Positions 5,813 to 30,839 of a stretch of DNA of 64,000 nt are shown one piece after another. The position numbers were made by a program, and so were the translations under genes. The stretch covers positions 19,220,001 through 19,284,000 of the forward strand of contig CM060733.1 in NCBI GenBank assembly GCA_030704615.1, in the 5' to 3' direction. Within the stretch, counting starts at the first letter, position 1; each line of letters begins with the position of its first letter. The notes under the pieces were generated by a model. That model was given only the letters and a program-made list of their open reading frames with translations. It was not told the DNA's origin and did no database searches. Origin of the DNA: Takakia lepidozioides (Eukaryota; Plantae; Bryophyta).

Positions 5813-7111
5813 TTAAAGTTGGACTGAATGAATCCCTCCAGTTGGGACACTTCTGGACAATTTCGTTTTATTGGCTAGCTCTTCGTCAATGCGCTCCGAC
5901 CAACGTGGCCGAGCTTCCTTCATCTCAGAGATCCAGCTAAGTTGAGTTTTTGGGTCTTTGTACACCAGTAATACTTTTCTAATCATGCTTGCCACGGGAA
6001 GGTGCGGTAAGATGACCCGAAGGAATTTCTTAAGCTCCTCTGCACTGAACCAAAGACGGTAATAACTCACTTCACTAACCTTCCGGTCCTTCCGGACTCG
6101 TCGAACAGGTCCAACATGCGCATACACTTTCCAAACAGTTTCCAAGTACTGAGCTAAGAGTTGGACAGAATCTTTGTCAAAGTCGTCTGTGCTCAACACA
6201 CCTTTGCGGCCATTGGAAATAATTGATCCTTCATCGCACCACCAAATTGCCAAGGATAGCGGTGTCAGATGGTTCAACCATCGCCGGCGGATGAGGAGGT
6301 GATTATGGTCGTGTGTGACGTCATGAATATGCGTCAGGGCATCGAGGTCTCGGCTCTGAAAGAAAAGCTTCTTGTTGTTGCCAAAGTGCACAGAACTTTG
6401 TGCAGAGACTTCATGTAGTGCGCCTACCTTCCACCGAAAATATTCTTCTTGCGTATGGCTATGACGAATAGAGAACCTTGCGTTGTTGTCGCCTTTCAGT
6501 ATTCTCAGTGACCCATGTCCCAGAAGTGATCCTAAAATGATTGATTTCATCGAATCCGGCAAGGCTACTTGACTGAGTCTTTTTAAGTCCAGGTTAGGAG
6601 CTTGATGAACTGTGCCTGATGTGAGGTTGGCCAACCTGTTGCTCTCGTCTCCTACATTCTTCAGCAATGTAATTGCCTGTGTCGTTCTGTCAACCCTGTC
6701 GACTTGTATCTGCGGTGCAACCGTGCAAATCTCTTCCTCCCTCACACCGACTACTTTCGCTGGATCGATCTTCAGACGCCAACCCTGATCTGCAGTCGAG
6801 CTAAACAATGCAGCCGATGGCGCCAAAAGCGACCCCAGCCTCCTCTCAATGCCATTTTCCCCAAAATACCTACACCCTGGAAATGTGTCACTCTCACCGC
6901 CATCACCACTCTTCCATGTATGAAAACCCGAATCTCGTAGTTTCTCGACCCCTCCTGCACATTTGGAAGGCTGAATTCCCGAGTCAAAGAAACCCTGCTG
7001 CCCTGCAGTTGAAGGTTGCCTAAACTGTGTCCAAAACCCTAAACCCTGATTTCGCAACTCAGTCAACCTCAACGCTTGCTTCCTCATCATGGAATGCCGC
7101 GAAAAAAGCAT
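5813..7111 (-). CDS. Intronless double-motif LAGLIDADG (I-SceI-like/LAGLIDADG_2) protein with an N-terminal organellar targeting-like extension
   Basis: Intact 432-aa ORF. Motif 1 is IILGSLLGHGSL and motif 2 is LTPLSLAIWWCDEGS, with the typical intervening HS..QEEYFRWK and C-terminal LPHLPVASMIRKV. The N-terminus is Arg/Ser/Leu-rich. Confidence 0.85.
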   Translation of the reverse strand: MLFSRHSMMRKQALRLTELRNQGLGFWTQFRQPSTAGQQGFFDSGIQPSKCAGGVEKLRDSGFHTWKSGDGGESDTFPGCRYFGENGIERRLGSLLAPSAALFSSTADQGWRLKIDPAKVVGVREEEICTVAPQIQVDRVDRTTQAITLLKNVGDESNRLANLTSGTVHQAPNLDLKRLSQVALPDSMKSIILGSLLGHGSLRILKGDNNARFSIRHSHTQEEYFRWKVGALHEVSAQSSVHFGNNKKLFFQSRDLDALTHIHDVTHDHNHLLIRRRWLNHLTPLSLAIWWCDEGSIISNGRKGVLSTDDFDKDSVQLLAQYLETVWKVYAHVGPVRRVRKDRKVSEVSYYRLWFSAEELKKFLRVILPHLPVASMIRKVLLVYKDPKTQLSWISEMKEARPRWSERIDEELANKTKLSRSVPTGGIHSVQL

Positions 7112-7493
7112 TATACAAAACCACTACCTGTGAGAAAGGTGATTCCCTCCAAAGCGCTCAGAATCAATCGGGCTTTTTCTCTTGACTCATGGCAGGACTC
7201 CATCGGGGCGTGCTGGGGGCTCGGTTAGCGCTCGTTTTTCTCCCGCTGACGGTGAACAGCAAGAAGTTAAGTGGAGACACCGTAGGAGCTTAAGGGCGAG
7301 GCAAAAGCTGTTGGATTCGTAAACTAAAACAAGTCAAGAAACAGAGCACAAGGAGGTTCCTATAAATACTGAGAGGGACCACAGAGCCCAAGGGGCTGGT
7401 CCAAGGGCTTGCCCCCTGAGCTAACAAGTGGGGTCTCACTACCTGATAATGAGCACATCTACACAAAGCAAGAATTACAAGTGTCACTGCTAA

Positions 7494-9415: not shown

Positions 9416-10284
9416 GTCACCTAAAGCAGTTGGTCTACATGCTGCAGCCACTCTCATCAAAGACCACATCTCTGGAGATAACAATTTTTCTCGCTTGCCC
9501 TTGACCCTGAGCTAACAAGTGGGGTCTCACTACCTGATAATGAGCCCATCTACACAAAGCAAGGAATTACAAGTGTCACTGCTAATCATGATAAGAGAAG
9601 CTACACTAAGAACCCAAGCCACACTAAATAATAAGTGCTGAAACGTGATGAGTGGGAAGTTCCAACAAAAGCACCGGTATCCTCTAAGCATAAACGTGAT
9701 AGCTGAACATTACTTCTTCATGTCCTCCTAATTCTTCCTTCTTATTCTGCTGCTCTCTTAGTTTCAAATTTCCTTGTGTAAGTATACGTCTCTAGCTTCG
9801 ACACTCTTCTATCTGCTCTCTCAGTCGCTCGGTTAGTTTCTTTGTTCCCTGTACTTTCTGGTTATTGGGGCGGTGTCCTCTTTGCCAGGTTTGCATTTAC
9901 TAAGCAAGGTCGCATTTACTCTTGATAGAGTAGCAAGGTTCTTGTATTTACTGGCGGTGTGTGTGCCTCATGGTGTAATTCGAGGGTTTTAATTTTTTTC
10001 CCTCCAATAATCCAAAATAAAGTTAATCTCATGACCTCTGTCCCCTCCAACCCCTTGTCAAAAGGGAAACCCGTAAGCCTAGTTATCATTCCTGACGTGA
10101 CGTGCCGCTGACACGTCAGCCGTCACGTCCGACGTGCGTCACGTCACGTCGAATCCGGACGTTTCTCCATGTAATTTTTTTTACATTTGACTTTTACGAT
10201 TTACTTCTACCATTTGTAATGACATGGCAGCCACGGTGTAAAACAGACGTGGCCAATTATTAATATTTATTAATTCTTTTTAAA

Positions 10285-11065
10285 AATACGTCCGCATATA
10301 TTGGTGGTGGCATATAATTTATTATTTTTTAAATGAAGCGACCGCCCATATTGGCAGTCGCTTGTAATTTAATATTTTATTAAATTAAGCGACCGCCTAT
10401 ATTGGCAGTCGCCGGTAATTTATTAATTTTTAAATGAAACGACCGCCCATATTGGCGGTCGCTTGTATTTTAATATATTTTAAAATAAGTGACCACGGTC
10501 GACTGAAGTTTATTATGTTTTAAATTAAGCGACCGCCCAGATTGGCGGTCGCTCGCACTTTATTATATTATTATCATTATATATTTAATATAGCTTGTAA
10601 AAATACAGCGACCGCCACATAGCGGTCGCTTTAGTTTTTTTTTAATTTAACGACCGCCATTTAGCAACGGTCGATTATTTTTATTTTTATTCTTAAATAA
10701 AGCGACCACCGTTGTGGTAGCTTTTTCAGTTAATTTTTGTAAAATGCAGCGACCGCCATTTGGGGGCCGTCGCTATTTTTGTTAATAAACAATACAGCGA
10801 CCGCCATTTGGCGGCGGTTATTTGATTTGATTTTGATTCTTAAATTAAGCGACCGCCGTTTGGCGGTCGCTTACTTAATTTTTTTTTTTAAATGAAGCGA
10901 CCGCCATTTAGCGGCAGTCGTTTATTTTTATTTTGAATCTTGAATTAAGCGACCGCTAGTAGGCGGTCGCTTATTTAATATATTTTTAAAAAATACATCG
11001 ACCGCCATGTTGCGGTCGCTCTTCTTGTTTTTATAAATATAGCGACCGCCATGCGGCGGTCGCGT
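10285..11065. repeat. Array of about 15 GC-rich palindromes (AGCGACCGCC-N4-8-GGCGGTCGCT) at about 50-bp spacing with AT-rich spacers; resembles DNA-transposon subterminal repeats
   Basis: Units read directly at about 10337, 10388, 10438, 10528, 10607, 10649, 10701, 10748, 10796, 10848, 10896, 10948, 10997 and 11041. Confidence 0.9.
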
Positions 11066-11099
11066 GTTTTTTATTCAAAAGGGACGAATTCCCATTCAT

Positions 11100-12460
11100 T
11101 CAATGGGCGATTGAATGGTTGCCCATCCAAATGATTTTCGTTTGATTTCATTCTCTGCCACTATGTTCAACATACCATGTATCAGGTCCCGGACTAATAT
11201 GAGATCAATCGAAATTCATTTGATGGCTCAATGGATGGTTGGCCATCGAAATGATTTTGGTTTGCTTTGAGACTTGGCCAGTATGTTCAATGTACCATGT
11301 AAGAGGGCCTTGAGTAATATGAGATCAATCAAAATTTGTTCAATGGGCCAACGGATGGTTGCCCATCCAAATGATTTTCGTTCGATTTGAGACTTGGCCA
11401 GTGTATTCAATGTACCCTCTGATAGGTCCCAGTGTAATATAAGATCAATCAAAATTTGTTCGATGGGCCAATGAGGCGTTCACTTGTCATCTGGTTTTTG
11501 TTCATTGCGAAAAAAAAAAATCCTGCAATGCGTACACAGCTATTGCACCCATTCAACAGATGTGGTTGAAGCCCTTCTTTTGCCCGCATGTGCTTGAACT
11601 TGTGTGCAACACATGTACAGAGTCACAACAGACGAATAAATCATTTGCCTCTCCATCGACGCGCTCACCCCTCAAGCCATTCCAGAATTTAAATTAATTT
11701 TAAGCCAATAAATAGGTTTGCACTTGGGGTTTTTGGCACGAATCGATTTTGTTTTTGCCTCAATTTTGTTCTGCAGCTTCAAGCATCCCACCGCTACTCC
11801 CCCGCCAAAATTTGGACCAATAAAAAATGTCCCAAAAAAAAAGTGTTATCTTCGTTCACTATTGCAGAACTCTCTATAAATAGTGCAGGAAGTAGAACAC
11901 AAATCAAGTTTGGAGTGCAAAACAGGGAAGAAACTGTGGTTTTGGGTCCAAATGAATTTTGCTCGCTCCCAAATTTGGCACACACATTGCATATGGAGTC
12001 GTTACACGCCCCATTCAAAAACGGATTGAAAAAACATAAATCATGAGCACGCGAAACGCAGTCCAACAGGTCCCAAAGTAATAGCAAATCTAACGAAATA
12101 CATTCAACGGGTGAATGGATGGTTGCCCATCCAAATCATTTTTGTTTGCTTCCAAACTTTGTTAGTACGTTCGAGACACCCTCTCACAGGTCTCGGACTA
12201 ATATGAGATCAATCGAAATTTATTTGATGGCTCAACTGATGGTTGGCCATCGAAATGATTTTGGTTTGCTTTGAGACTTGGCCAGTATGTTCAATGTACC
12301 ATGTAAAAGGCCCCAGAGTAATATGAGATCAATCAAAATTTGTTCAATGGGCCAATGGATGGTTGCCCATCCAAATGATTTTTGTTCGCTTTGAGACTTG
12401 GCCAATGTGTTCAATGTACCCTCTGATAGGTCCTAGTGTAATATGAGATCAATCGAAATT
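11100..12460. repeat. Two blocks of three 120-bp tandem units (about 11100-11465 and 12100-12460)
   Basis: GATGGTTGCCCATCCAAATGATTTT...GAGACTTGGCCAGTATGTTCAATGTACC...GAGATCAATC recurs with a period of 120 bp. Confidence 0.9.
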
Positions 12461-13124
12461 ATTTTGTGCTTCGAGAACTTTGTGGGTATGTTTGTCATAC
12501 ATAGAAAAATCATAGATTTTCCGAAATGATTATGAAATACCCAGGGACCAGGCGAAATACCCACATATACGTCATGACCAAATATGACACCATTGTAAAT
12601 TTGTTTACAGGGTAAACCACTTCTTCCCCATCACACGAGTGTAAATGTGAAGAAAACGTTTCTCATGCAATTGAAATTGGCAGGTGCCGCACATGTGCAT
12701 TGTGTATTAACAAAATTGGTGATATACAAAATTGGCAGAATGTTATCACTGTGTTTTCCAACAATATTCAAGGTACAACAAGAATGCACATTGTCTATGT
12801 ATTACGCTGCTAGTCATTAAAAGCACTGTCCGAGGACAATGAATGTGATGTTGTGGCCTGATTTGCACTGCCAATACGAAGACCTTACGACCGTGATCTC
12901 GTAGTCAATGAGGGGCCCAATGGCACGTGATCAATTCTGGTCTGCATCCGCCTACTTCGCGGCGAAAGTTGACTTTCTTCTTCACTCTCACGACGAGGTG
13001 GATCGACAACAAGTGCTCGGGCTGCATGCAAATCGGCAACGAGGCCGTCCACATTCAGCAATAGAGCCCCCGAAACACGATGATAATGGTCTGTCCATAG
13101 TCGCCTCCATTGCTCTACAACTGC

Positions 13125-14296
13125 CTAGATGATACTTTTGAAACTTTCCAACTGCCTCTCGCGGGCCCTGTCCCTAATCATATTGTCGTTTCGACGATTA
13201 GTCACCTCGTACACCTCATTCATTCGGCATTGACATATTATAGCATCTTTCAGTTTGGACAACAACAAATGTCTCTCAATCGGTTCTCGGTCAAACAATT
13301 CGTTCTCCTCCGGCACCCATAGAACCTGTGGGAGCCGGATAAACCTCGACCTTCTCTGACTCCAATGCCCTCCCAGATTGTGGCAAAACTGCTCTCTCTC
13401 TCTCCCACCAATCAGGAATGCCTCCCGCACGTATGGTTATCTCCCAGTCAGATGTGACCCAGAAATATCGGGGATCTTTGACGTATGCCGGGTTTCCGGC
13501 ATGTTTGCCATGCATCTCTCTGTCTGCGTCCCATACCAAGTTCTTGCCCCAATGCAAAAAATTCAGGAATGTGAATGGTAGCCCATCCAATGGGAGGTTG
13601 TGTCGATTATATTCAAAACCTATGGGTAGCCGATCCTCCAAGCCCACCAGCTCATAGAAACGGCGATGGATTGGTGTACGACATTTTGGGCAAGCGCTTA
13701 TCCGTAAGGCTTGCGGGATAAGACATGTGAGATGGAACATATGTCCACATGATCCAACCGCATGACATCCCTCTGGGCCGTATGGATTCATGCACATCGA
13801 ACAAACTGTGTCATCTGATATCCACGACGGCAAAACGCGTCGTGGTATCTCCTCCCTCTGGGCCGGTTTGATGTGGCTGGTCATCCTTATTGTGGTGTCT
13901 CACTCTTCCTCTATCTCAAATTCCCAGTTTATGCTTCTGTTCGACCCCGAAATTTTGTGCTCACATCGATCGAACATAGAATCCACATCTGCCCAGTTGG
14001 TATACCCAGCGAACACGCTTGATGCGATGCGGAGATCGTTATATCTTTGCATGTTGGCATAAATGCTATCCACGCTACAGTTCGACATGCGTGCGACACG
14101 TTGCAAGTCCATGTCCATGACGTTTGTTCGATCCTCATTGTGGACAACAGTGCCTTCATTGTTTGGAGGCATGTTTTGCAATCTAGCTTCCAACTCGGCT
14201 ATACGCGGTGTTTGTCAGTCTAGTCGGTTCTGCAGGGTCCTAATTCGCTGGTCTCTTTCCGCCAGTTGTTCCTCTAACGTTGCCCCCGGTTGTATT
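13125..14296 (-). pseudogene. Coiled-coil plus RING-H2 protein gene, 3' half; the 5' half lies at about 23688-24150 beyond the retrotransposon
   Basis: RING-H2 CSMC..SCGHMFHLTC..CPKC in ORF 13291-13884. Removing the 14297-23687 insert and one TSD copy restores the frame ..YISDMFGI|QPGATLEEQLAERDQRIRTLQ.. The gene also has internal stops and frameshifts. Confidence 0.75.
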
Positions 14297-14818
14297 TGTC
14301 GTGCGCATACGTATCGCTACACAACTACATCGCTGTCTAAACTACACCACACATATATGGACAATAAAGTAGTCTGCCACAATGATAGAAACTTAGACTC
14401 ACACTGTTGACACAAGAACATGAAATACAACACCATCACTCGTTAAACTAAGAGTCGAGCCAGGGGCACCCCAAGCTATGGGGACTCCACCCCACAACAT
14501 CATATTCTCCCTTCATAAGCACACTCAGATTCTAAGCAGTGAAGGAGCTCGGTCGTGTAGGCTCAACTCGAGAGAGATGAGCCGCACGACTGACGCTCTC
14601 GTGAAGATAAGATGGTTCAGGTGTCAAGCTAAACTTGACACCTGACTTAACACTTGAACTAAATCCAAGTGTTAAATACAAATAACTAGCTTTATTCTAG
14701 TTAGTTTCACACTGTGTTTATTTAACTTGACAGCTGTCGTGCGCATACATCCACTACACAACTACATCGTTGTCCAAACTACACCACACATATATGGACA
14801 ATAAAGTAGTCTGCCACA
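14297..14818 (-). repeat. 3' terminal A-B-A repeat block of copy 1 (A 14735-14818, B 14383-14732, A 14297-14381)
   Basis: The two A copies match directly, and this B matches 23339-23687 with roughly 10 differences in 350 bp. The A/B junction is the palindrome GACAGCTGTC. Confidence 0.95.
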
Positions 14819-15078
14819 ATCGCCCCCCTAGCTGGTGGATAGGTCCCTCTAACTCCAGATAGCTACAAGATATAATAGCCACAGCCGTACTAAGTCCTCT
14901 ATCACTGTCCATATTATACTCAAACTCTATAGACCAAGAGGTTGGGTACAAGAGTAGCCCCATCGTTAGTCGTCGTCTTGCAATCTGTGAACTTGAGTCA
15001 GGATCTCGTGTGTTCAAGATCTCATAGTAGCTTGGCCTTGCATTTCTTGTTAGCCTTCCATGGTTGTATCCACTCCCA

Positions 15079-18000
15079 CTATCCAATGCAATGCGGACAT
15101 AACCAATCCCCATCAGGAACCATCTCAAGAGGTGGAGTCAAACAGCCCATATGCCAACCTCTAGAGCATCGATCACACACCAGCATGGTGGCTGCCCCTC
15201 TAGCAGACCCACACAACATGCACCTCAAACTTGCAGGTACCACTACCAGGTTTGGGTTAATCCTGCCATCGACATTCGGAAGGTGACATAGCGCACAATT
15301 ACGCACATGGTCCTTCCAAGTTATGTCATCCCGACCCTCCAAGATCAAGACGCCTGAAGGCAATACCTCTTGAACCCTCAAAATAACACGTCCTGCAGTC
15401 ACATCCAAGGTCGTAGGAGCAGTCTGCTGCAGATAAACATAGTCACCAGGGTTAAAATCTCCGGATCCCAGGACGATAGCCCCCACCACATATGGTAGCA
15501 TACCTCAACGTATCACGATGTTGTGCAATGGCAAGAGTCTTAAAAGCCATGGGCATGACTTTCTTGAACAACTCTGCACGCTGATCACATGCACGTGCCC
15601 ACACGTCCGGATCATCAAGGTTAAGAACTGTAGCATCTTCTCTACGAATGGATGTAGGCAAATCGGCTCTCGGCCAAAGAGAAGAAAGTATGGTGAGAAG
15701 GAGACAAGTGATGCTTGCTTGCTGAACCTGTAGCCCATGGCTAACCAGGATTACTGAAGGTCCCAATCTCCTAGGTGTCCCTTCTGCAAGCCATACTTGC
15801 GCAAACCCCTCTTTATTGTCTGAACAACCCTCTCTGCCAAGCCATCGGCCTCAGGATGATCCCGAGAAGTGGTGCAGTGGTCTACCAAGGCCTTGTCACA
15901 CAAAGCCTGATACTCCCCCAAGAACTCTCTCCTTTGGTCCGTGAGTACCTCAGCTGGAGCATAGAATCGGCTAAGTACACAATCCAAGAATGCATACGCA
16001 GCTCCTTCACTAGCCTTATCAGGCAATGGAACCAACTCGATCCACTTGGAGAAGTGCTCTACCATCACCAACACGTACTTGTTGTGGCGCATGATCAGTG
16101 GCAATGGCCCTGCGAAGTCAAGACTCCACCTGTAGCCCAATCCCATGATCGGAAGAGGGTGCAATTGTGGAGTAGGGGCGTTGAATGAAGCATGCACCTT
16201 GTCACACACCATGCACCTAGCCACAAATTGTTGCACCTCTGTGTGCATACCACGCCACCAATACTGCCCCTGAAGTAGACTATGAGTGCGTCGCACCCCA
16301 AAATGCCCCAATTCCTCATGGGCATGCCGCACTAACCGTGCCCGCTGTGTTGGGTGAGGCACAATCCTCACTCGACCATCCTCCCACATTCGGAGCAGGT
16401 GTGTCCCCTCCCACTTGAACCTCTTGGCTTGTTATAGGATCCGATCCCTCTCCTTGGCAGTCAGCGTGGTTGCCGTGTCTCCAGTGCGGAGGTAGTCCAA
16501 CACAGCTGAATCCTCATGTATATCTTTGGCGCCACCTTGCTCATTGCTGGCCTCAGGGTCCTCAGACAATATCTACAGTCATCCCTGTTGCTGGTCCAAC
16601 CTGGCCTTCCGCTGCTAAGATACTCAGAAATGCAGATGCATGCCATCCGGGCACCATCTCTTCGTCTGTCTCACCATGCCACCGAGCTCCAATGTCATCA
16701 TGTTGGCTCGTGCATGGATTGCGACTCAACCCATCTGCATCCCGATTGACCAAACCCGGTCGATGCACAACCTGAAAGTCATTCTCTTGAAGGATGAGTG
16801 CCCACCATGCAAGCTTCCCCGTAAGCTTGTCTGACTCCATCAACCACTTGAGTGGTTGGTGATCCATGACAAGGATGAAGAGATTTTCATATAGATAGCA
16901 CCTGAAGTGTGCCACGGCCCATACTGCAGCTAAGCATTCTCCCTCATATGACTTATACTTAGACTCTGCAGTGTTGTTCGAGCGGCTAGCATAAGCCACT
17001 ACAAACTCTCTTCCCTCATCATCCACTTGTGTGAGCACCGCTCCAAGCCCCAGCATGCTCCAATCTGTATGCAGCTGAAAATGACGCCCCCTGATAGATC
17101 GTCTCAAGATGGGCGCCGAGGTCAACCTTGCCTTGAGCTCTTGAAAAGCTTGTTCTTGCTAATCTTCCCACTGCCACTCCTGGTCCACCTTGGTCAGTTT
17201 GGTTAGAGCCTTTGCAATGGCACTAAATCCCTTAACAAACCGTCTATAATAGTTTGCTAACCCCATGAAAGCTCGAACTTGGCTCACATCAATAGGGCGT
17301 GGAATCTGTGCAATAGACTCTACCTTAGTCTACTGTACCCCCAATCCTCCAGGATGTATCATGTGACCCAGATACTCAATTTGGTTGTGGAAAAACTTGC
17401 ACTTCCCCGGATGTAACTTCAATCCGTGCGCCCTCAAGCGCTCAAATATCACCTGAAGATGTCTCTCATGCTCCTCCACTGTAGCACTAAAGACGATGAT
17501 GTCATCTATATAGCACCGAGCAAACTCCACCCCTGCTAGAATCCTGTCCATGACTCTCTGAAACTCTGCCGGAGCGTTCTTAAGCCCAAATGGTAAGAAC
17601 CGCCACTGGTATAGGCAATCCTTCCTGTGCTCATTGATCCCCCATAATGTTGTCTTCTGCTTATCCGCCTCCTTGATCGGCAACTGGTGATATCCGGATC
17701 GTAAATCCAAAGTGCTAAAGACCTTGGCATGCCCAATGGCATCAAAGATCTCCTCTGGTGTCGGCATGGCATACCTATCGGACTTGGTCTGACGATTTAG
17801 AGGCTGGTAATCACCGCACATACGTGTCTCTGTCCAATTGCCATAGACATCCTTCTTGGCTGGCATCACTGTGGCTGAAGCATACTCTCCCCCAGATAGC
17901 TCCACCAAACCAGCCTCCCAAAGGTCCTGAGTTCTTATTTGAATCAAGGACCTCTCCATGTCACTGTATCTATAGGGTCTCCGAAAGATTGGCGTGTCAG

Positions 18001-20222
18001 TAGCCAATTCAATGCAAATCTCTTGACCCTTCAGTGCTCCTAAGTCCTTCAAACAGAAGGCAAAGCAGTTCCTGTAAGCCCTCAAGAACCGCCGTATACG
18101 TCGTCTTTCTCCTCTGGTGACTATAGGTCCAACATCAGGCTCCCAGTTGTCCTCCGTGACTGCAACCTTGAGTCCAGCAGGCTTAGAGGTAGAAGACGCG
18201 TCCCGTGGTTGCTATGCTGCAACCTCTTGAGCAGTGACCACTGCCTCCTCTGTCAGTGACAATGTCTCATCCTGCCCCATCATCCCATCCTTGAGGACCT
18301 CCTCAACCCGAGAAAAATCCCCAACTTCATCCATCACGGCCGCCTTGGCTGCTAACTCCTTTTGAACCTCGAGCACCTCCCACGTGTGCCATGGATGCGG
18401 CCTACACCTTGTGGTCCTCACCTGTTCACCCCCACTCGCTGCCTATACCGTCTCGGTAGGCAGGGAGACCATCAAGGAAAGTGTACTCCGTACTCGGCGC
18501 TGCTCAGCCATAGCCAAGCTGATAATCCAGGTCAAGCAATTGAAATCCATTGCTTGCCCCAACACCTGACGACGTGATGCCTCAGAAAGAGATGGCATCG
18601 CCGTGGTACCAGTGGTAAAACCCATCGCCCGCTCGCGCTCGTCAGCATTGGGCTCCACTAATTGGTGCAACTAGCTAAACCACAAGAGGCCAGGTCCACC
18701 ATCCCGAAAAGCATGGGATCCTAGAAAACTGAGCAGTATAGGCAATGCGGCTCATGGGTGACCCACCTTATTGACCACTGCCAAAGGTGATCGGTCATCG
18801 TGTCTCACACGCTAAGACTGTCTCCCTATGTCCAAAATGCTATCAACCGTCAGGTGTGGTGGCTGCTGCACCCCATCAAATGCACGCTTGAGCAGTGCAG
18901 GTGGCATTAAGTTGGTCCACCATAGTCGTGGGCGATGAGCCCGTGACCCCACTGCTGCTGCATCCAGCAACACTGCTAATCCAAGCCAAGACCGCACTTG
19001 ATGCACACTGGCCATTACCTTGGCCCGAGAATCACCCCTTAATGGCACATTCTCCAAGATATATGCTGGAGAGTCTGTCTGCTGAAGTTGTAAATAACAT
19101 AGGACCCTCAACATTTCCCAAAACAGACGTGACCTTGAGTCGTGTAACCCATTGCCATGCCCGGCTCATGAATGCCCTTGGCAGGGCCAACCTGCCACTA
19201 CCAAGTGAATAGGGTCAACCCGTTCCAAACCATACGCCCCCAGCAAAGAGATGTCTGCTGGCAATGCTTGTTGGTATCCACGAACTGCAGACACTGGCAA
19301 CAAATCAGGGTACTGCTGCACCAATTGAGCAACATGGCGCAGTGAGACGCGTCGTGCAGTCTCATCCCTCTCCACATACAGGTAACGTCGAAGTCATACA
19401 CCTGCCTGCAGCACTGCAGCCAATCAAGTGTTGATTCCGCCAAACAAGTCCAGAAGGCATATGCCTTCATCCGGGCACTACCACACAAGAGGTATGGTGT
19501 CCAATGGCAACAACTAAGGTGGTCCTGGTGCAATCACCGCACTCTCCTCCTCTCCTGACGGTACGAAGGCCTCTATCCAGGCTTGTTGCACATGTCTATC
19601 AACAGCCTGATGCAAATCCTTGCTCGTACCCCACAATGGAGTGTGAGCAACCATGGCAGACAACTCCACCGTACCATGCATGTCATCCTGCTCTGCTAGA
19701 GGCGGCACATCCTCTGCATGGGCATTGCCCTCCAGCAACTCTCCAGGCCAACTAACTTCAGCTGTGAAGGCTGCTAGTGTTGGAATCTTGCCCCGCTGGG
19801 CAGCAGCAACACCCCCAATGAATGTCACAGGGAGTTGTACACGACGACCATCCTCTGACTGCCATCCAGGCCTGTAGGATGCTGACTCCTCCCAAAAATC
19901 CAGGGTGAAGCCCATGGGATATAACACTGCCCCACCAACGAGGACATCATAAGAGACCGCATCTGTCACAATGGCCTTGGCTCGCATCACTGAGCCATCT
20001 ATAGGATGATCCGGCTGTAGTCAAATGACCAACTCACGCCGTGTCATGCCCCAAGCCCGCTCTGATCCTCCCAGAGATGTCTATCTCGAAAGGACAAAGC
20101 TCCATATCTGCCTCCATGAGGCCCAAACTTGCAATAGCAGCTCTGCCCAACATCAATGGCTGAGCTCCGAAGTCCAACAAGACCCGTAGTGGCCAGTACC
20201 TCTTGCCTGCCGGTCCACTCAA
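15079..20222 (-). pseudogene. pol of copy 1: aspartic protease, C5 DNA methyltransferase, RT, RNase H, integrase, PHD
   Basis: Protease VLLDFGA; RT FSTLDLRSGYHQ, LPFGLKNAP, YIDDII; RH LHTDWS, YEGECLA, DHQPL; IN HHCC (HAHEELGHFG..CMVC), SLDFAGP, LTDQ, GLAER; PHD C4HC3. Many premature stops. Confidence 0.95.
18520..19469 (-). pseudogene. DNMT3-like cytosine-5 methyltransferase domain within pol
   Basis: Motif I LLDLFGGINT, II YVERD, III DI, IV VVAGWPCQGHS (catalytic PC at 19181-19186), VI YILENV, VIII AHRPRLWWTN, IX ERERAMGF, X RRQVLGQAM. Confidence 0.92.
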
Positions 20223-20416
20223 AGAGAAAATGCATCAACACCCCCACACCAAAATCCATCTGCAGTGCTGATCCTGCAGAACATCCCAGCCCAAAACCCC
20301 GGACTGACTGGCCTCCACCAAGAGAGGCTTTGGCAACTACAAGTACAAAGTAATGAAAATAGTAAAAAGAGGGAGGGGGAGAATAGAAGCCCGACCAAGC
20401 AAGATCTAATCCTGAT

Positions 20417-21161
20417 CTATGCTATCAACTGCCAGACTTCTCTCAAAGTGCCTCGCTCTGCATGATGGTAAGGTGTAGGAGGTATATCTATGTCTAGAAA
20501 CCTGTTACTAACCTTATCCCAAGCTATAGTAGCTCGCTCTAACCAACCCTCCTCCTCTCTCTGCCAGGTAGAGACAAAACAATATTCCCTTATCTCCCGC
20601 TCACTGAACACTAAAGAAAATAAAGGTAGGGTCTGACAGTCTCTCAACTCGAAAGCTTTGAGACGGTTGCGGGTGTCTGCGAATGATTGCATCTCCTTCA
20701 AGCAAAACAAACTTTTCATTGCTAATGAACCTCCGCTCGTGGTTGCCTCGTGTAGAGCGTGTCCGGTTGCAACCATGTCTGATTGCAAAAACTTGTGTAG
20801 CTCCTGCTCCTCTGCTCTAGTACACCACGGCCTTGTGGTTGAACACCTTGGTCCCCGGGGCTGTCTTTGGCTGTGTTCCAAGCCTAGCTTCCACCCACTT
20901 TGGTATTTCACCTACAGGTGCAGAACTGCTTGCTCCAATAGAGTTCTGACTGTCCAAAGCAATATTGAGGCCCTCAACGCCAACTACTGCAGTTTGTTGT
21001 CTATTGCTAATGTCTGACTCCCAGTATGCAATCAACTCGTCCAACTGCTCTCCACTCAAATCAGTCTGAGTTCCTTGAGAAACATAAATCTTGTCCCCTT
21101 GTGTGCACAGGCTAAGAGAAGAGACTTGCCCTTCAATTACGTCCTCATTTCCCCCAACCAT
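20417..21161 (-). pseudogene. Unidentified accessory ORF (two overlapping frames) in the 5' region of copy 1
   Basis: ORFs 20817-21161 and 20417-20911 overlap and read like a single frameshifted protein. No family recognised. Confidence 0.35.
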
Positions 21162-22290
21162 ACAAGGGGGACATCCCCAAATTTGTCTCTCATGTAGACC
21201 ACAACAGGTTCTAGAAACATAATTGTGGATCTTTCATAGCACACTCACACTCCATAGATTTTTAGCAGAGTCCAAAAAACTAAAACCAGGTCTAGATAAG
21301 TAGATTTCCCCTTTCTGCAGCTATCCCCCCAAAAACTGAGTCAAATGGAGTTCATTTGACAAAGATATGACCAATTAGGCTCCAAATCATTTAAATTAGA
21401 TCAAAAGGGGTTTTTTTTTTTTTTTAAACACCAAAACGTTCTCGCCATTAAAAACTGCTCCCAAGTCATCTACGAGTTCCCAACACGTCCATGTAGTTCT
21501 CACAGATTCCCTGGATTTCACCTACAGGTGTTTCAAACATACACCGGTGAACTGCTATGCTCCAGCCAAGATCTGTAGCTATGCCGACTCTGGGGCTTTG
21601 ATCCTTCGCATCCACTCCATCTAGCACACCCTTCCATGCCACACTTGACGTGCACATGCCTCAGGGAAGCAATCTGAACAACTCCAACTTTGACCACCCA
21701 CAATGAAATCCTTCGCTCTTCATCAGGGCTGCCAAGCTTCTATTGCAAGCACATGTAAATGAATTATGTGGAGCCTAAGTCACACATCTGCCCCTTCAGT
21801 TGATCACTTGTCTATCAAGGCATTTTCCCACACCTAAGTGGGTTATACCCTGTCTTAATCACACTCCCTTAGACCAGATTTCAGCCATGTCATCAGTCGC
21901 TCCAACCTAGCAAACCATCGCAGTTCATCTCTAACAGACCTCAATTACCTCTCCTCATACAATGCAAGGAACTAATCTTCAGAGGAACAAAATCTAACTC
22001 CTACCAACTCATCTAGCTCTACCAAGTTCTGCGCTTTTGCCTCGCCCAATCTGCATCAGCCCCCAGGGTGCAAAACATAGGGCGCACGCTTCTCGCAGAC
22101 TTATTCCAAATGTTGTGCCTCGTAACAATGCACTGCAAAATACCCTCAGATCATGTCATATGACCGAAACACCTCCCAAAGATTGCTGTGTTGCATTCCC
22201 TGAAACACTAGGCACACTAGTGCCCAGCGCAGGAGAGCCTTGGGAAAGTCGGCCATTCCCTGCAACTTACTGCCCGTTCTCCAAAGAGAT

Positions 22291-23013
22291 TCATCCGGTC
22301 CCAAATTTGCTTTCTAAATGCTGGAGACCTGGAGCACCGCCCTGGCCAGTTGTTGTCCCTGGCCGAGCATGGTCTAGAGGTTGCAGAGGTCCTGGTTCTA
22401 ACTTCACGTGTGTTAGCTGCGAGGCTTGCACAGGCAAGAGCTTCTTGTCTCTTTGCTTTCGAAGCTTCTTCTGACTGGAACCTAAGAGCTGAACCTTGGT
22501 CTGCAGGTCCGAAGATTGGTCTGAAGAGAGAGCAAGTGCAGATGGCAGTTGCCCACCAGGTTCTGACAGAGTATCATCAGGGCTTGTCCCTGCATTAGGG
22601 ATGGCTCGAGTGCTTGCATCACGGAAAAGAGAGCCTAAAACTGCACGCATACGTTGATGGTGTCTCAAACAGTACACCTTGGTGGCCATTGGTAAGAGAT
22701 TAACCTCAGTTGTATCATGCAGCTTCCCGCCATACTAAGGGTGATTATTGTTGGCTTTGAACTGCTGCAGCAACACTTCGAATGGTTTCCGCCTTCCTGT
22801 TACTGCCCGTTTGTTTGCTTCAGTGTGCAATTTACAGGTCAAGGATTGGCGACAATAGGCACCAGATTGCCCCGTCACCACCCCACAAAGCACATCTAGC
22901 TCCTCTGTTGTCAACAACTTTGGTTTTTTCCAAGGTGGTGATTTGGTGTCCGCCAGACTTGTGCTTCCTGGCCCCAGCCCTGCTCCATCCTCTCCTGGTC
23001 ATCCTCTCGGCAT
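22291..23013 (-). pseudogene. SCA7 (Sgf73/ataxin-7) zinc-finger cargo ORF inside copy 1
   Basis: LDVLCGVV..GAYCRQSLTCKLHTEANKRAVTGRRKPFEVLL matches the SCA7 pattern (D..CGV..C.RSLTCK.HS..RRAV.GR..FD.LL). One frame runs from ATG 23013 through ORFs 22735-22917 and 22291-22689, with two internal stops. Confidence 0.82.
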
Positions 23014-23326
23014 CCTTGCCAAGCTGACCCATAAGCACGACAACCGCTTCTCATTCGGCCTTCACTACTCGCACACCATACATATGGTCAGAATGAGTCT
23101 GAGTTCCTACTGTCACCACCAACCAAAACCAAGAGGCAGGAGCCCTCCTCTGATTGCTATGCTTCCCATGACCATTTATATACCCAGAAACCAGAGATGA
23201 TCGAAACCTGCATGTTTTTTTTTTTTGTTTTTTTTTTAAGCCTCTCAAACTAAGCACTACTTACACACAGATAATCATACAAGTGCTAACCCTCAACTCC
23301 TACCTTGCACTCACAGGTAAGAGATG

Positions 23327-23338
23327 ATCTCTCTCGAG
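23327..23338 (-). promoter_or_regulatory. Primer-binding site complementary to the element's own LTR (self-priming type)
   Basis: The sense sequence after the LTR end is CTCGAGAGAGAT, with no TGG. Positions 23327-23339 are a perfect 13-nt reverse complement of LTR positions 23521-23533. Confidence 0.8.
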
Positions 23339-23687
23339 TGATAGAAGCTTAGACTCACGCTGTTGACACAAGAACATGAAATACAACACCATTACTCGTT
23401 AAAGTAAGAGTCAAGCCAGGGGCACCCCAAGCTATGGGGACTTCACCCCACAACATCCTATTCTCCTTCATAAGCACACTCAGATTCTAAGCAGTGAAGG
23501 AGCTCGGTCGTGTAGGCTCAACTCGAGAGAGATGAGCCACACGACTGACGCCCTCGTGAAGATAAGATGGTTCAGGTGTCAAGCTAAACTTGACACCTGA
23601 CTTAACACTTGAACTAAATCCAAGTGTTAAATACAAATAACTAGCTTTATTCTAGTTAGTTTCACACTGTGTTTATTTAACTTGACA
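23339..23687 (-). repeat. 5' terminal repeat (B segment only) of copy 1
   Basis: TGTCAAG...CTATCA, 349 bp, matching 14383-14732 and directly abutting the TSD. Confidence 0.95.
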
Positions 23688-26569
23688 TATTCCAAACATG
23701 TCCGAGATGTACTCCAAATCGCATAGCATCCTTTCGTTCCTCCTACTAGCAGTAGTTTGTCAATTCACTGAACGTAAGAGTATGACCTCCACGTACAACA
23801 TGGCTGCCAAGGTGTACGGGATTTGGCCCTTTAAGATAGATTGATCCCACAATGTGCAATGCACCTCATTCGCCCTATGCTGGAAATGCAAGTTCGTGCA
23901 AGATTTGGACTCTGCGTAATTGTTTCGGGTTTGCACGTCATGCCTATCTAAATGCCACAATCGATTGATGTGGTACCACTTCACGAATTTTTTGCATCTC
24001 GCCATCGGCCACCTGAACTCTTCCGGAACATCCTCCCAGCCCTCTTCTGCTATGATGCTAGGGTCACCATATACTTCCTAATTCAAGTCTTGCCTTCACC
24101 ATTTGATTTTCCTAGGGGGCGGTCCATGTTCATTGGGATCATCTCTTCCATGACGCTCATCGTCCTGGCCCTCTGCCATTCTACAACAATTGGAGCAACA
24201 CTAAACGAGGTTACTAATAAGATGTAACTCTAAACCCTTAGCGCACTAAGTGTGAGCAGATTCCACTAATCGTGAGCAGATTCCCTTAAGTGTGAGCAGA
24301 AGTTAAGCGTGAGCAGAAAGTGGAAGTGGAGCGTATAGTCGTGGAAGAAGCATGGCCTATTGTCGTTGACGCAAACTTATGCCTATTGGAGGTTTACATG
24401 CCATGATGGGACCAAAGGCACCGACCTCCATGCCAGAAAATGTGGGATGAATGTGTACGAAGAACTTCTCGATGAACACGGTATTGTTGGCTGAATAATA
24501 CGTCGAGCATGTCACTCAGGTGTACTGTGATAGGGCCTGTTTTTAATGGAGTCCTGAAGTTGAAACTCAAACGCTCCCGCAGTCCCTCCTTTTTAGTGCT
24601 CGGGTTGATTTTTCGTGGTTGCCAATTTTTCCTTGCATGCTTTTGGCTGTTATAACACCATCACTGGGTTCAAGTATGATAAGTTCTATAGCAGAGTTTC
24701 TTCACACTTGAGCATATGTGCGGAGCTGCTTGGATGGTTTTCTTGCAGTATACACCTAGTCCACGACATCTGCTTCGTTGCTAGTATGCCAAAGCTGCAT
24801 CGCAAGGATAATAACCAGTAACTTGTCACTAGGTTGCATGGAAAAGAAAGCTTGTAAATATGGGCTAGATTGTGACTTGGTAATATTCTCATTCTGATCT
24901 GCGGTCTCTTTCGCATCTCTATTGTATTCATGGGCTCAGATGTTGAGCGGTGTTGAATCTAGTGGTGTGAAGGTGGAGGAGTTTGATTACCTGGACGATG
25001 GGAGAGATCAAGGCAACCAGAGTGTGGCCATGGTGGTTGTGGGTCTGATGTTGGCAGCCATGTGCATGATCAGCGGCCATGAGTAGACTTTTACTATTAT
25101 TATAGTGGATGGAATCCCAATTGGACAAGTCAGCCTTAATTCCAATCGAATGGTTCCTTACCCAGCTAATAACTTGACCATCACAATTGAACACTGCTCT
25201 CCAGATCATAGCCAACGCGACGCCAATGGGCTGTGGCGGCTACTTTGTGGCAAACACTTTGTGCATAGACAACCACTTCACACTTGGTGTCTGACACCGA
25301 TACTGTTGAGTGATGAACTAACAATTTGCCGAAGGCAGAAAGATGGGGCAGGCGCTGGTATGGAGATGCCACCAAGTAATGGTGGATGGAGTCATAGCTT
25401 GCATATATGATTCGACATATTGAAACAGAAAATAGCTATCTGGCTCACTTTGAAAGAGGGACCTATACACTGTCAGAGTTCAGATTGCTGAGTGAAGGTG
25501 CTGGAAGGTATGGTGAACTTGGCTTCCTTGAGTCTCAGCCTGCTTGCATTGTGGTGACACTATTAAGTAGCCACTTAATTAATACGTGTTAAAGAATGTA
25601 TAGAGATATGTGCAATCAGCAGATTTGAGCTCTGGGGCAAATTATGAGGCAAAGCTGGTCGATCAGAAGTTGGTTAGAAGCTGATCAGAAGGAGAAGCAT
25701 GAGCTGCGGCATGTTTGACCACCGATAGAGGCATAGCAGATGTGCACAAGGAAGGACCAGCCACGTAGCAATAGCCTGCTCTGTGATCAAGTCTTGCATC
25801 AGGTCTAGGCGATCGCGTTAATGTTGTGAGACATGGTGAATCTCATATAACGTTGCGGGCCTAGTGAAGGAAGACCAGGTTGCTCTTGGGGTATAGGCCA
25901 ATGGTCGATGAAGGTACTAGCACCACCTTGGAAATCACGAATTGAACGTGGAGATGGTCTTATTGTTGTGGCTGATATCTACTGCCCAACAATACGTGAA
26001 TGGTTGCAGAAAGCCATCCTGGTTGTGGTCACTGTGTCATGCAAAAGTCATGCCACAAAGCCGAAATGAAATAGGGGATAAATTGAACCACAGGAAATAG
26101 CGTATCGGATGGAGTTTGGCAGCCCGGCAGGTCATGCAAAGGGACGTTGGTTTGCAACCTGCAGCCACTTAGGTTGTCCAGCCGTAGCTAGCTAGTGATC
26201 CGTATGTGTGCCGTCTAGCATGAGGCTGTTGGGGTACTGGCATTACAAGATGGGATGATCTGTGGCAGGGCAGGAGACGGGGTCCATCTTATACAACAAC
26301 GATAACCTTGCATTGATCGCAACAGCTTGAACAAGGTGTTATCATTCTGGAACTTGGCATACCAATGAAGAGATTACCTTTAGCATGGTAGTTCCAGTCT
26401 GGAGCGATTGAGTTGAAAAATCTAAGATCGTCATATTTCAGATATGAGCCAGGCATGAGTCCAAGGAATTCTTAGGAAACCAGGGAACAGGGAACCAAGA
26501 CAAGTTATTGAAAATAGATTTTCCCCTGTATTTGTTTATTTTTTAAAGGGTGCTATGTTTAAAGAGCCT

Positions 26570-29542
26570 GGTTGGTCATATCTTTGTCAAATGAGCTCCG
26601 TTTGAGGCAGTTTTTGGGGGGATAGCTGCAGAAAGGGGAAATCTACCTACTGGTTTTAGTTTTTTGGACTTGACCAAAAATCTATAGAATTTTTCTAATG
26701 TAAATTAGATCCTCCCCACATGTATTTGAGGTCTATTGAAGAAGCTGTTTCAAGTTAGGGTTGATCACTTAGCTTTCTGTTTATAACACACCTGTCACTC
26801 TTTAACATTAGTGTATGGCTAGAGAGGAAATGGAGAGTGTCGGGATGAGGGCATGCTAGGGTTAGGAATTTCTTTAGTCTCTCCTTCCCATAGCTTCCAC
26901 CCTCTCGGTAGGCCAAAACCTTTCCATAGGTGGAGACAAGAGGCAGTCCGGGTTTTTGGGCTGGGGTATTCTGTAGGAGCAACACCACGAAGGTGTGGGG
27001 GTGTTGATGTTTTGATTTCTTGTGTTTGGATCCCCCCCACACCTGCATGCTTGACTGTGCGCCATGTTGGTTTTGTGTGGGCGTTTGCTTTCATAGGGAT
27101 TAGGCCGGAATTGATCACTGGTCAATCCTAGAGTATGTTGTCGGTGATGAGGCTGGAGTGATGACCAGCAAGACCACTAGTGTTTTTTCTATGGTGAGGC
27201 TGGATTGATGACTTGCCAACCATATGAGTTTTTGCGGTGGATGCAGTTGCAAGTGCCCTTAGCCACTGGGATATGACCCTTGAGCCGCAACAGGTGCCCA
27301 CCCGTGTCATTTTTGAACTTCTTGTAGAGCCTTATAGTGACACACTGGGGGAGGTGTGGGTTGTGAGTGTCATCACGGAGTTACCCAAGGCTTATGAGAG
27401 GAGTGCAGCTACAAGCAATAGAAGTGACAGTGGGTTCACGAGGCGAGGGGTTTAGTTTAGACCACCTTCATCTCCACCCTCAACCGGTGCAGAGTCTAAC
27501 ATAGACTCGGAGGCCTCATCAACAGGTGCGCAGTTTCCTTCGCCATTGTTGTGGGACGACATGGAGGGGATGTATGGAGCTACCAAGGGGCCTTGTTGGT
27601 ACTCTGGGGCTGTGGGCACAATCGAGCTGGATGACTTTATCCAGGAGTTCGATAGCTGATGTGATTTGTAGCAGATGTACAATCCACAGCTGTTTACCCC
27701 ATTCATGGCGTGGAAGGGACTGTTCCAACATTTGGAAGGCCCGCCTATAGATTATTACCACGAGTTTAGGCAAGGACACGAAGCAGAGATTGAGGAATGG
27801 AGAATGTATTGGTCACCTGACTACGTCTCCATTACTCGAGGTACGACGCGACCAGCAGCTGCATCAACACCAACGTCTCCAATTGCAAGCACTAGTAGTA
27901 GGACAAGTGGTACATGAGCTGGGAAATCCACTCAAGCTCCGTTGTAACACCAGCACTCGTTGTTGTCTTCAACCCAGTGGTGGAGTTTTTCCAGGAGTTA
28001 AGGAGGAACTACCAAGGAGTACGGACAAAGAAGCTGCGAAGTTTGCAAGACTTTCAGCACAAATCCAGTGAGAGCTTGCGAGAGGCCTACACTCGTATGA
28101 GGCGCTTGATAAGTGTGACCCAAGGGGTTAATGAAGCTCAGGCAGTCTAGTTCTGGTATGGAATTTTGGACAAGGAGCTCAGGAGAAGGGAGCGGGATGC
28201 AACCCTGTTATAAGCAGCCCAACCCACATTAGCAGATGTATTTCTGCTGGCTGAACGGATTGAGCTCAATATGGTGGAGGAACGAGTTGTTACCATTGGA
28301 TTTGGCAAGGACATGCTTGCACGAGGCGCAGCTACTAGCCAACAGCCTTCGGGACTGCCCAACAGCGTGGTCAGGGGGGCAAGGTTGCCTAACCCAAATT
28401 CCATGGAGCTTATAGGGGACCTCAGGTGTAGAGGCCAGTAGCTTCTTTTGCAGGCAAACAGCAACCAGGGGTGGTGTATTGGACATGTGGAGGACCCCAT
28501 GTCAAGAAGGATTGCCCAGAAAGCGGCAAAGGGCCGGCACAAGCACAGCCTGCACAGTTGCAGTGTGGCCATTGTGGTAAGTATTGGCATGGAGAGACAT
28601 TGTTATGACTTGCACCCTGAGTTGCGGCGAGGCCAGTTCCAAAGGAGCAATGGTGGCCGAGGGCAAAATGGAGATGTGGAGGTTAGGGCATTCACCAAGG
28701 CATGGCCAACCGGCTTCAGTAGCTAGAGCAAAGGCTTGCTGCCATGGCCACAGCTCAGGTGGTACCGGCTCCAAAACCTGAGGGTCCACCTCTTATTCCT
28801 CCTTAGCAGCGTCATCCTGATGGAGGAGACATGGGAGGCATGGGAGGTATGGGATTTATGTGCGGGGTAGTACTCGGAGGACCACTTGTAAAGGTGGATT
28901 CTGCTACAGTTGTGACTTGAGGAGCAGTACGAGTTCATGATCCACGAAGTACAGAGGTGGAGTTAGATCCACAGCATGGGGAGGCAAGCCGTCAGGCCAG
29001 GCTGCCTCAACATTCACATTGGCGGAGACAGTGTCGACGCCATCTATGGCACCTAGTTCTCGCCCGACGGATACCGAGGCGGAGGTTATTGTGCCCTTGG
29101 AGGGAGCCACACGAGTAGCACCAATACCTGCTGCCAAGGCTAGTGCAGCCAGTGTGCTGCTGGGGGTGGCCACATCTGTATGTCAGGCCCCATTGTTCTC
29201 GGCGACCATGATTGGCCTAGAGAATTGCTAGAAGACAATGCTCATGCAGAGGATGTGCCACCTTCAGCAGAACATGATGTATGCATGGTATGGCGGAGTT
29301 GCCTGCCATGGTTGCTCACACTCCATTGTGGGGCACAAGCAAGGATTTGCAGCATGCTGCTGGTAGACTGCAACAAGCCTGTTTAGAGGCATTTCTACCG
29401 TCAGGAGAGGAGGAGAGTGTGGTAATTGCACCAGGACCACCTTAGTTATCACCATTGGACACCACACCTATTGTGTGGCAGTACCCGGATGAAGGCATCT
29501 GCCTTCTAGACTTGTTTGGCGGGATCAGCACTGGTTTGGCTG
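26570..29542 (+). mobile_element. Copy 3 of the DNMT-gypsy family: degraded gag, an internal deletion, and truncation in DNMT motif I; 5' limit uncertain
   Basis: 26570-26690 is the reverse complement of about 21260-21375. The gag matches copy 2 (LFTPFMAWKGLFQHLEGPP) and retains two Zn knuckles (xWTCGGPHVKKDC; CGHCGK..H..CYDLHPE). The homology ends at EGICLLDLFGGISTGLA. Confidence 0.85.
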
Positions 29543-30839
29543 TTGTTACCAGCACGGTTTTTCGGTTAGACCTCAAGACATGGCTACCGTTGCTGATCTT
29601 TACTTCTCTGGATTTGTTTGCTTGCAACTAGACGACCCTTCGAAAATATTTTTATAAAAAGAGGCTTGTTTCGCCAATCAATACATCATCCGGCAGGAAA
29701 AACGTAAAATCCTACAAGGAATATCAAGAATCATCATCGCTATCCTATTTCGTAGCCTACTCTTCCTTCCACATAAATTCGGTAACCTATTTCGCAATCC
29801 GGTTTCGCAGCCTACTCTACCTTCTGTACAAATTCAATATTGGTCATTGTTTCATGCTTGTAACGAAGGAGGGTCTCAGTAATAGTCCTATGAGTCTCAG
29901 GGGAGTAATCTGGAGGGGTATAGCTCAGAGACCCTGGAACGTATTCTACTGAACCGGTGGAGTAGGCAAGAGAGCCAATCATAGTTATATTCAGGGTAGG
30001 GTTCACGAAGAGTCTCTCGAATTGTCCTACCCGTCTCAGGGGGAGAGTCTGCAGGGGTGTATTCTACAGGGCAAGAGGTCAGAGATCTAGGGTAGTATTC
30101 TGGCGACGCAGCCGAATAGCCAGGAGAGCATGAGGTGTGCACAGGGGAGTCTGGAGATGATGCCACATATCTTGATGACCCAGAAGATGTCACTCTGGCA
30201 ATCTGCGTAGACTCGCAACCGCTGATATCCAGATTTTCATGTACAGCTGTCTTGTTTGGGCCCTGCGGATTGTACAGATTTTTCACCCGGCCGGAGTTGT
30301 GACGTAATTCTTGGATTCCTAGAGGACTACAACTCCTGCACCTTTTACAATGCCCCGTCCAAGAATGTCCCGAGCTTGCGCGACCGGTTCCCCACCCATG
30401 CTCCGTGGTTTCATATTGACATCACATGGAAATCACAGGAGGAAACGACGTGCTATAAGGAAGGGTTGAACCTCGCTTTATAAGTGGAGGTTCGTAAACC
30501 GGCTATCCCATTCATCATTAACTTTTGTTACCCAATTTGGTTATAAACTACGAAACGTCACAACTCCTAGTACAACAATGTGGTCGGATATTCTCAATGT
30601 TTTTCATGGGGTCATGGCATGCCCTTTTCCTGCCTGTGGCCGCACACATTTACAGGAACCTCCACTGGACAGTGGAGGTTCCACTTTCTACTTCTAATGA
30701 AGTTTATGTGGCTCTACGAATACTGTCATTGAAAAGATCTACGGTGACCTACGAGTAGAGTAGGCTACGGTGGATCTGGGTTGCAGAAAAAGGCAGTGAA
30801 TATTTGGCAAAACTGGATGACCATTAAAATGAGGAGTAC

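Follow-up and report, generated by a model that had tools for sequence, protein, structure and literature searches.

We found that a Ty3/gypsy retrotransposon of bryophytes carries a DNMT3-like cytosine methyltransferase domain (DNMT) at the end of its Gag-protease-DNMT reading frame, which a stop codon conserved across the family separates from the reverse transcriptase (RT). According to the model that we favor, and to which we give somewhat better than even chances, the enzyme would likely be made at Gag-like levels and be packed into particles, it would likely methylate the element's own new cDNA, and this cDNA would likely be integrated through a circular form.

Results

The domain had been singled out in a first-pass annotation of the window, by which we mean the whole 64-kb stretch of DNA analyzed, and belongs to copy 1, an element on the minus strand at 14297-23687. 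Its C5-methyltransferase motifs do lie in a single minus-strand frame and in the canonical order given there, from about 19462 down to 18524, and the domain (18524-19462, minus strand) matched PF00145 with 38 bits (E 1.7e-09, cut-off 22) when its six in-frame stops were translated as X. The proposed DNMT3-type, non-permuted nature of the domain was borne out both by solved structures, 29 of the 29 PDB sequence matches being DNMT3A, DNMT3B or DNMT3C, and by a natural homolog (P0169), whose predicted structure (pLDDT 83.9) had DNMT3A as its best fold match (E 1.8e-19). Motifs I, IV (PC), VI (ENV), VIII (RxR), IX and X are conserved and kept in this order, unlike in the permuted DRM enzymes. Catalytic positions overall are retained in 88-99% of the homologs covering them, with the catalytic Cys kept in 177 of 183, the ENV Glu in 203 of 212 and the motif VIII Arg residues in 195 of 223 and 196 of 220.

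Host plant DNMT3s are described as carrying DUF3444 C-terminal of the methyltransferase domain (PMC6453930). This domain gave no match in P0001, P0003, P0022, P0095 or P0149, and Pfam found no PWWP, ADD or DUF3444 partner domain with the family DNMT. CpG depletion was equal in the domain (0.53) and in the window (0.54) and is therefore uninformative on specificity. We regard the family DNMT domain as a putative enzyme.

Copy 1 itself is a dead element, with six stops in the domain (19426, 19396, 19168, 18814, 18754 and 18673), a frameshifted protease and no gag. Among the best 40 of 219 rows of a comparison with related contigs, which comprise many copies in one organism and one 91%-like piece in another, most contigs read another letter at the stops 18445, 18673 and 18754.

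The domain had also been described as embedded in a polyprotein and as sharing one frame with the distal protease upstream and with RT and RNase H downstream. The distal protease (from 20080) and RT-RNase H (18145-16658) do lie in the DNMT frame, but the front, catalytic part of the protease lies in a different one, and an in-frame stop stands between DNMT and RT, so that DNMT closes a Gag-protease-DNMT ORF. On the minus strand of copy 1 we located the aspartic protease (19850-20231, frameshifted near 20075 and with no gag upstream; tblastn with P0003, P0008 and P0009), RT with RNase H (16700-18030; PF00078, PF17917, PF17919), a frameshifted integrase with H2C2 zinc finger and rve core (15088-16353; PF17921, PF00665) and a PHD finger at the C-terminal side of the integrase (15088-15222; PF00628). 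Protease, RT, RNase H and DDE integrase thus follow each other in the Ty3/gypsy order (Pfam, tblastn). In the ORFs scanned with Pfam there was no match to a tyrosine recombinase, and the integrase is followed by no chromodomain, only by the PHD finger, which we take to resemble a reader of unmethylated H3K4.

A fragment of an SCA7 (Sgf73/ataxin-7) zinc finger (22744-22929, minus strand; PF08313, 63 bits) sits in the 5' region of copy 1, between A1, the repeat at its left end, and the 5' leader. Sequence comparison found no counterpart in the two other copies of the window, and the piece is likely a captured host fragment or a nested insert, a passenger of the gag-less copy 1.

Both other copies lie on the plus strand. 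Copy 2 (38327-43743) consists of the front of gag, a deletion, the C-terminal part of DNMT, the same stop, RT-RNase H-integrase-PHD and the repeats B1-A2-B2, no A1 having been found for it in the window. Copy 3 (27561-29547) has gag, deletions and DNMT motif I, after which it ends abruptly. As annotated, copy 2 retains motifs IX-X (39063-39356) and copy 3 motif I (about 29503-29541). The idea that the domain is a family trait also held beyond the window, since DNMT occupies the same position in elements from liverworts, mosses and metagenomes.

Elsewhere in the window, host-type gene pieces lie at 1027-7123, 13294-13899, 54046-55856 and 62320-63109 (vacuolar sorting receptor, amino-acid kinase, LAGLIDADG_2 protein, RING finger, FAD oxidoreductase and acyl-ACP thioesterase). 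A DUF7869 match (34629-35294, plus strand) falls in a decayed multi-ORF region (32000-35700) that is possibly another mobile element. Tandem arrays occupy 36786-37436, 43800-45060 and 10270-12517; a 10-nt G-rich tandem unit just precedes copy 2, degenerate telomere-like AAACCCT repeats just follow it, and arrays of 50-nt and 120-nt units are also present.

The named relatives closest to the window element are bryophytes, with best matches of 70-72% identity and others down to 46%: Marchantia polymorpha, M. paleacea, Calypogeia fissa, Riccia sorocarpa and three Sphagnum species. The first-pass annotation had been aware of no well-characterized land-plant case of a retrotransposon-borne DNMT3-type domain, and these relatives establish its occurrence there. 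Many such ORFs are listed as hypothetical proteins in the annotated Marchantia proteome. Among the matches listed (55; best 120 of 173; 119), most of which bear no species label, none was named as coming from Klebsormidium, a hornwort, a lycophyte, a fern or a seed plant. A contig scan gave 74 metagenome loci of one related subfamily, which are related copies and not independent events.

A profile search revealed a second layout, RT-RNase H-DNMT-integrase-PHD, in the chlorophytes Monoraphidium, Haematococcus, Cymbomonas and Hariotina, and under one further label that we read as Chromochloris. Among 176 proteins of at least 900 aa with a DNMT domain, many of which are cluster mates, 82 had the order RT-DNMT-integrase and 54 the order (Gag-)protease-DNMT without RT; in two distant relatives (P0054 and P0353), DNMT and RT share one unbroken ORF. 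Quick trees separated the two layouts with SH-aLRT values of 98 for DNMT (74 chosen rows; a single host-type outgroup, P0380, on a long branch) and 95 for RT (47 chosen rows), and both grouped the window element with bryophyte sequences. DNMT and RT therefore co-diverge, the layouts being split alike in both trees. Going by these trees and by the nearest named relatives (70-75% identity), the host of the window is probably a bryophyte.

Several further sequences deserve mention. Two family DNMTs, P0191 and P0312, are labelled as coming from bacterial MAGs, likely owing to eukaryotic contamination of the bins. Four very long metagenome proteins (P0128, P0130, P0132 and P0055) combine RT, a PHD finger, a PCIF1-family domain, a related DNMT and RNase H, with no Pfam match to an integrase; they likely represent LINE-like elements with a DNMT of the same clade and a possible adenine methyltransferase. 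In P0041 (RT-RNase H-DNMT-integrase), the C-terminal 150 aa after the PHD finger show N6-adenine methyltransferase-like motifs by eye and no Pfam match, and this is possibly a dual-methylation element.

A dN/dS near 1 would mark the domain as a passenger, and between diverged copies we obtained 0.10 (window against 65 loci, a comparison with dS near saturation, pS 0.72) and 0.22 (copy 1 against copy 2, 95 codons). DNMT is in this respect similar to RT (0.08 against the loci, 0.16 between copies 1 and 2) and RNase H (0.08 and 0.22). Among the metagenome loci the values were 0.63 for DNMT, 0.43 for RT and 0.46 for RNase H, so that DNMT is the less constrained domain there, in pairs that include post-insertion decay. 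We conclude that purifying selection retains DNMT across the family.

One might still regard the domain as a neutral passenger or as a nested fragment of a host DNMT3 gene, given the six stops in copy 1, the among-loci ratio and the fact that copy 1 already bears one passenger, the SCA7 piece. Against this stand the intronless nature of the domain and its lack of DUF3444, the co-divergence of DNMT with RT, and the constant position of the domain in liverwort, moss and metagenome elements. This shared position, the low dN/dS between diverged copies and the kept catalytic residues largely rule out both versions, and we consider them extremely improbable.

The two window copies covering the DNMT-RT junction have an in-frame TAG followed by CAA CCA, a CAR YYA context (18206-18214, minus strand, with the stop itself at 18212-18214 in copy 1; the same at 39663 in copy 2). 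The matching codon was covered in 54 of the 74 loci and is a stop in 51 of them (38 TAG and 13 TAA, besides 2 TAC and 1 GAG), or in 40 of 43 loci after collapsing at 98% identity, and the codon after it is CAA in 54 of 54. The remaining 199 codons had a mean stop rate of 0.6%, with a maximum of 18%. The stop at 18212-18214, which recurs across the family, is not a product of decay. Furthermore, most database ORFs of the Gag-protease-DNMT type end 79-174 residues past the domain.

The dN/dS between copies 1 and 2 was 0.24 before the stop and 0.10 after it, which indicates coding constraint on both sides. No splice-like signals were seen near the stop in copy 1 or copy 2, which, like this constraint, disfavors an intron of the Ogre type at the junction.

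The CAR YYA context is reported to direct stop-codon readthrough in plants, where UAG and UAA are then decoded as Tyr (PMC2754532), and TAC, a Tyr codon, is what replaces the stop in 2 of the 54 loci. Translation likely passes the stop by readthrough. A real rival is that the element and the role of its DNMT are the same and RT-RNase H-integrase is made separately, by restart or from an internal promoter at an ATG (or near-cognate codon) two codons past the stop. It has to be taken seriously because the metagenome loci have an in-frame ATG at codon 3 past the stop (6 of 6 checked; codon 98-100% conserved in 52 loci) and an imperfect context, CAA CCC, in which the final A of CAR YYA is missing; the strict CARYYA motif occurs in the window copies only and in 0 of 27 loci searched. 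The 13 loci with TAA instead of TAG point the same way, as does Tca2 of Candida, described as having a weak promoter at the junction and as lacking readthrough directed by sequence (PMC2194720). On the other hand, both window copies lack the codon-3 ATG, having none for 84 codons past the stop and the first at codon 85, inside RT. Moreover, CAA is invariant although other Gln codons vary, a sense codon replaces the stop in 3 of the 54 loci, and UAA is also leaky in the CAR YYA context (PMC2754532). We therefore see separate production as possible but rather doubtful, and prefer readthrough. Whether by readthrough or restart, a stop after DNMT places the enzyme in the first, and likely abundant, product.

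The ends of the element are unusual as well. Copy 1 has the order A1, body, purine tract, B1, A2, B2, all on the minus strand. A1 (23339-23687), which forms the left end, starts with TGTC and ends with CA, is 97% identical to A2 (14383-14732; 9 of 349 positions mismatched), and B1 (14735-14819), which ends with GACA, is 93% identical to B2 (14297-14382), the right end. The polypurine tract (14820-14829) directly precedes B1, and copy 2 and related loci have the same tract ahead of B. The full A1-body-B1-A2-B2 form recurs in L027 and its 3' part in L031, L045 and L048. Two complete terminal LTRs were not seen; the repeats are instead split, as A1...B1-A2-B2 or A...B. Since the element starts with TGTC and finishes with GACA, the B1/A2 junction (14729-14738 in copy 1; also in copy 2, L027, L031 and L048) amounts to both ends abutted, and it reads as the palindromic GACA-GC-TGTC in 5 of 5 cases listed; in L073 it is deleted. 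Copy 1 is flanked by identical 4-bp target-site duplications (23688-23691 on the left, 14293-14296 on the right, minus strand). Of 9 two-ended elements, 8 have exact duplications of this kind and the ninth has one mismatch, which indicates that a DDE integrase made these insertions.

Immediately after A1 lies a predicted primer-binding site (23327-23338, minus strand), the exact 12-nt complement of a site within A1 (23522-23533, minus strand) that is predicted to be the 5' end of the RNA and the self-primer; among 1975 random pairs, only 1 gave a match of 12 nt or more. In L027 a 16-nt pairing is kept with different letters, that is, as a covarying complement, and pairing of at least 9 nt was present in 13 of 26 further loci scanned. 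B1 matches B2 within an element and both differ between subfamilies, from which we infer that both are renewed in each cycle.

Split repeats, palindromic junction and 4-bp duplications fit integration of a circular cDNA by a DDE integrase, and the way the ends are built thus speaks independently for a circle, which the first-pass annotation had guessed as one possible target of the enzyme. Fourteen loci have both tract and B: 8 stop at B, 5 run on into A and 1 is truncated where its contig ends; the A-body-B form may equally arise by recombination between B1 and B2 after insertion. A plain two-repeat circle should also yield the mirror form A-B-A-body-B, and 0 of 25 left ends listed are preceded by the junction, so that the model needs an asymmetry that it leaves unexplained.

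No such asymmetry would be needed if the split repeats were copied as in DIRS/PAT elements, with an RNA that starts in A1 and reaches into B2, the cDNA ends being bridged by the B1-A2 copy so that no end-joining is required. Copying of this kind would explain A-body-B-A-B without any A-B-A-body-B, as well as the A2/B2 joints, 5 of 6 of which are exact, and the repeat order is that described for DIRS-type elements (PMC5890265). Conversely, the primer site after A1 with its covarying complement and the purine tract before B1 argue for canonical LTR priming. Primer-site letters are also kept at one junction: in L004 (5690-5706), identical to L039 (12995-13011), the A2/B2 joint contains a 15-nt insert starting with the primer-site 9-mer, which is what end-joining could leave. 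We hold DIRS/PAT copying to be unlikely, though still worth considering, and keep circle integration as our working model. In L044 and L064 (about 5660-5900), an inverted tract-and-B end takes the place of A1 right before the 5' leader, a rearranged or auto-integrated product.

Discussion

In the life cycle that we propose, the RNA would begin inside A1 and prime itself on the site after A1. Most ribosomes would halt after DNMT, with a minority reading UAG-CAA into RT-RNase H-integrase-PHD. Reverse transcription would then yield linear B-A/body/B-A cDNA, the ends of which join, and integrase would cut the internal GACA-GC-TGTC and insert A1-body-B1-A2-B2, the integrated form corresponding to B-A/body/B-A that was circularized and then opened at one B/A junction. 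The A-body-B form, which is also seen, would come from a circle with a single repeat. Finally, DNMT may methylate the extrachromosomal DNA, which would thus arrive resembling host DNA. This last step is the least supported one: self-methylation of the cDNA is suggested by the position and conservation of the domain and by analogy with SymbioDIRS-Dnmt3, for which de novo CG methylation in yeast is reported (PMC5890265).

Alternatively, DNMT might act on chromatin during or after insertion, methylating the insertion site or other copies by way of the integrase PHD finger, or limiting the element's own expression. The chlorophyte layout, in which DNMT directly precedes the integrase, would suit such a role, as would the prevalence of RT-DNMT-integrase among the long proteins (82 of 176) and the PHD finger that follows the integrase in the window element and its algal relatives. 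In bryophytes, however, DNMT goes with Gag-protease, and the stop separates it from the integrase, as suits an abundant, particle-packed enzyme, and none of the PWWP, ADD or DUF3444 partners was found. Consequently, we believe a chromatin role to be fairly improbable and favor methylation of the cDNA.

DIRS elements generally have a tyrosine recombinase and make no target duplication. SymbioDIRS-Dnmt3 belongs to this class, whereas the window element instead encodes an rve integrase and is flanked by 4-bp duplications; both bear a retrotransposon-borne Dnmt3-type domain (PMC5890265). A Gypsy-borne Dnmt3 with DIRS-like repeats is known from Klebsormidium, and its domain gave no methylation in yeast, a result called inconclusive there (PMC5890265). 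Compared by description, this KnitGypsy-Dnmt3 of K. nitens resembles the window element in its Gypsy domain set, its intronless, non-permuted Dnmt3-like domain, purifying selection and DIRS-like repeats. It differs in having one ORF with RT and RNase H in place of the conserved stop after Gag-protease-DNMT, and it is described as an acquisition of the K. nitens lineage, whereas here the hosts are bryophytes, and chlorophytes hold relatives; a target duplication, priming site and circle model are absent from the parts of PMC5890265 covered.

Other systems share single traits with the window element. Moss Ty3/gypsy elements of the Tcn1 and Tf1/sushi chromoviruses are likewise predicted to self-prime (PMC6317226, whose parts covered do not mention the word methyltransferase); these and Chlamyvir carry a chromodomain where the window element has a PHD finger, and we set them apart by domain content. 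TMV has an in-frame stop with a CAA 3' context (PMC2754532), and MuLV, SIRE1 and Tca2 have an in-frame stop between retroelement ORFs (PMC2754532, PMC2194720). Unlike in all four, the stop here follows protease and DNMT, which puts a methyltransferase on the abundant side. The integrase of foamy virus, a retroviral enzyme of the DDE type, is reported to be able to cleave the palindromic junction of 2-LTR circles; there the palindrome lies at the LTR-LTR joint (PMC1180852), and here in mid-repeat, permuting the integrated form. EpiLTRs and DAM-LTRs are LTR elements, too, that combine DNA methyltransferases with a chromatin reader, but their DNMT is sister to DNMT4 and their reader is a chromodomain (bioRxiv 10.64898/2026.05.21.726589).

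The same preprint treats Gypsy-DNMT3 as a separate streptophyte case, and in the parts covered both it and PMC12344493 cite Klebsormidium as that case and leave bryophytes unnamed, although their trees may include Marchantia copies. A full-text literature search, judged mostly by title and start of abstract and leaving aside subscription papers and Repbase, returned no description of the family from bryophytes or chlorophytes. Within this scope, which included the parts covered of PMC10952607, PMC11244446 and PMC11982613, there was also no report of a stop after DNMT or of circle integration for a split-repeat Gypsy element.

More tentatively, the two layouts may belong to one old Gypsy lineage that spans the green plants, primes itself, makes DNMT3 at Gag levels via a leaky stop, methylates its circular cDNA and uses a DDE integrase to cut a palindrome in the middle of its LTR, with DNMT having moved within the lineage. 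We think this wider scenario doubtful as a whole. If true, the choice between the two junctions for cutting could even depend on methylation, and the move of DNMT, which stands before RT in bryophytes and before the integrase in chlorophytes, would mean that the Klebsormidium case was no one-off capture.

Altogether, our findings extend retrotransposon-borne DNMT3 from one alga to land plants, and the split ends suggest an LTR element integrating via a circle with a retroviral-type integrase. Elements without two full terminal repeats likely escape LTR-finding programs. The land plants concerned include the model liverwort Marchantia, whose host methyltransferases number five in one published count (PMC5784723), and the presence of the family in this species makes the use of the enzyme to the element, a question open since 2018, genetically testable.
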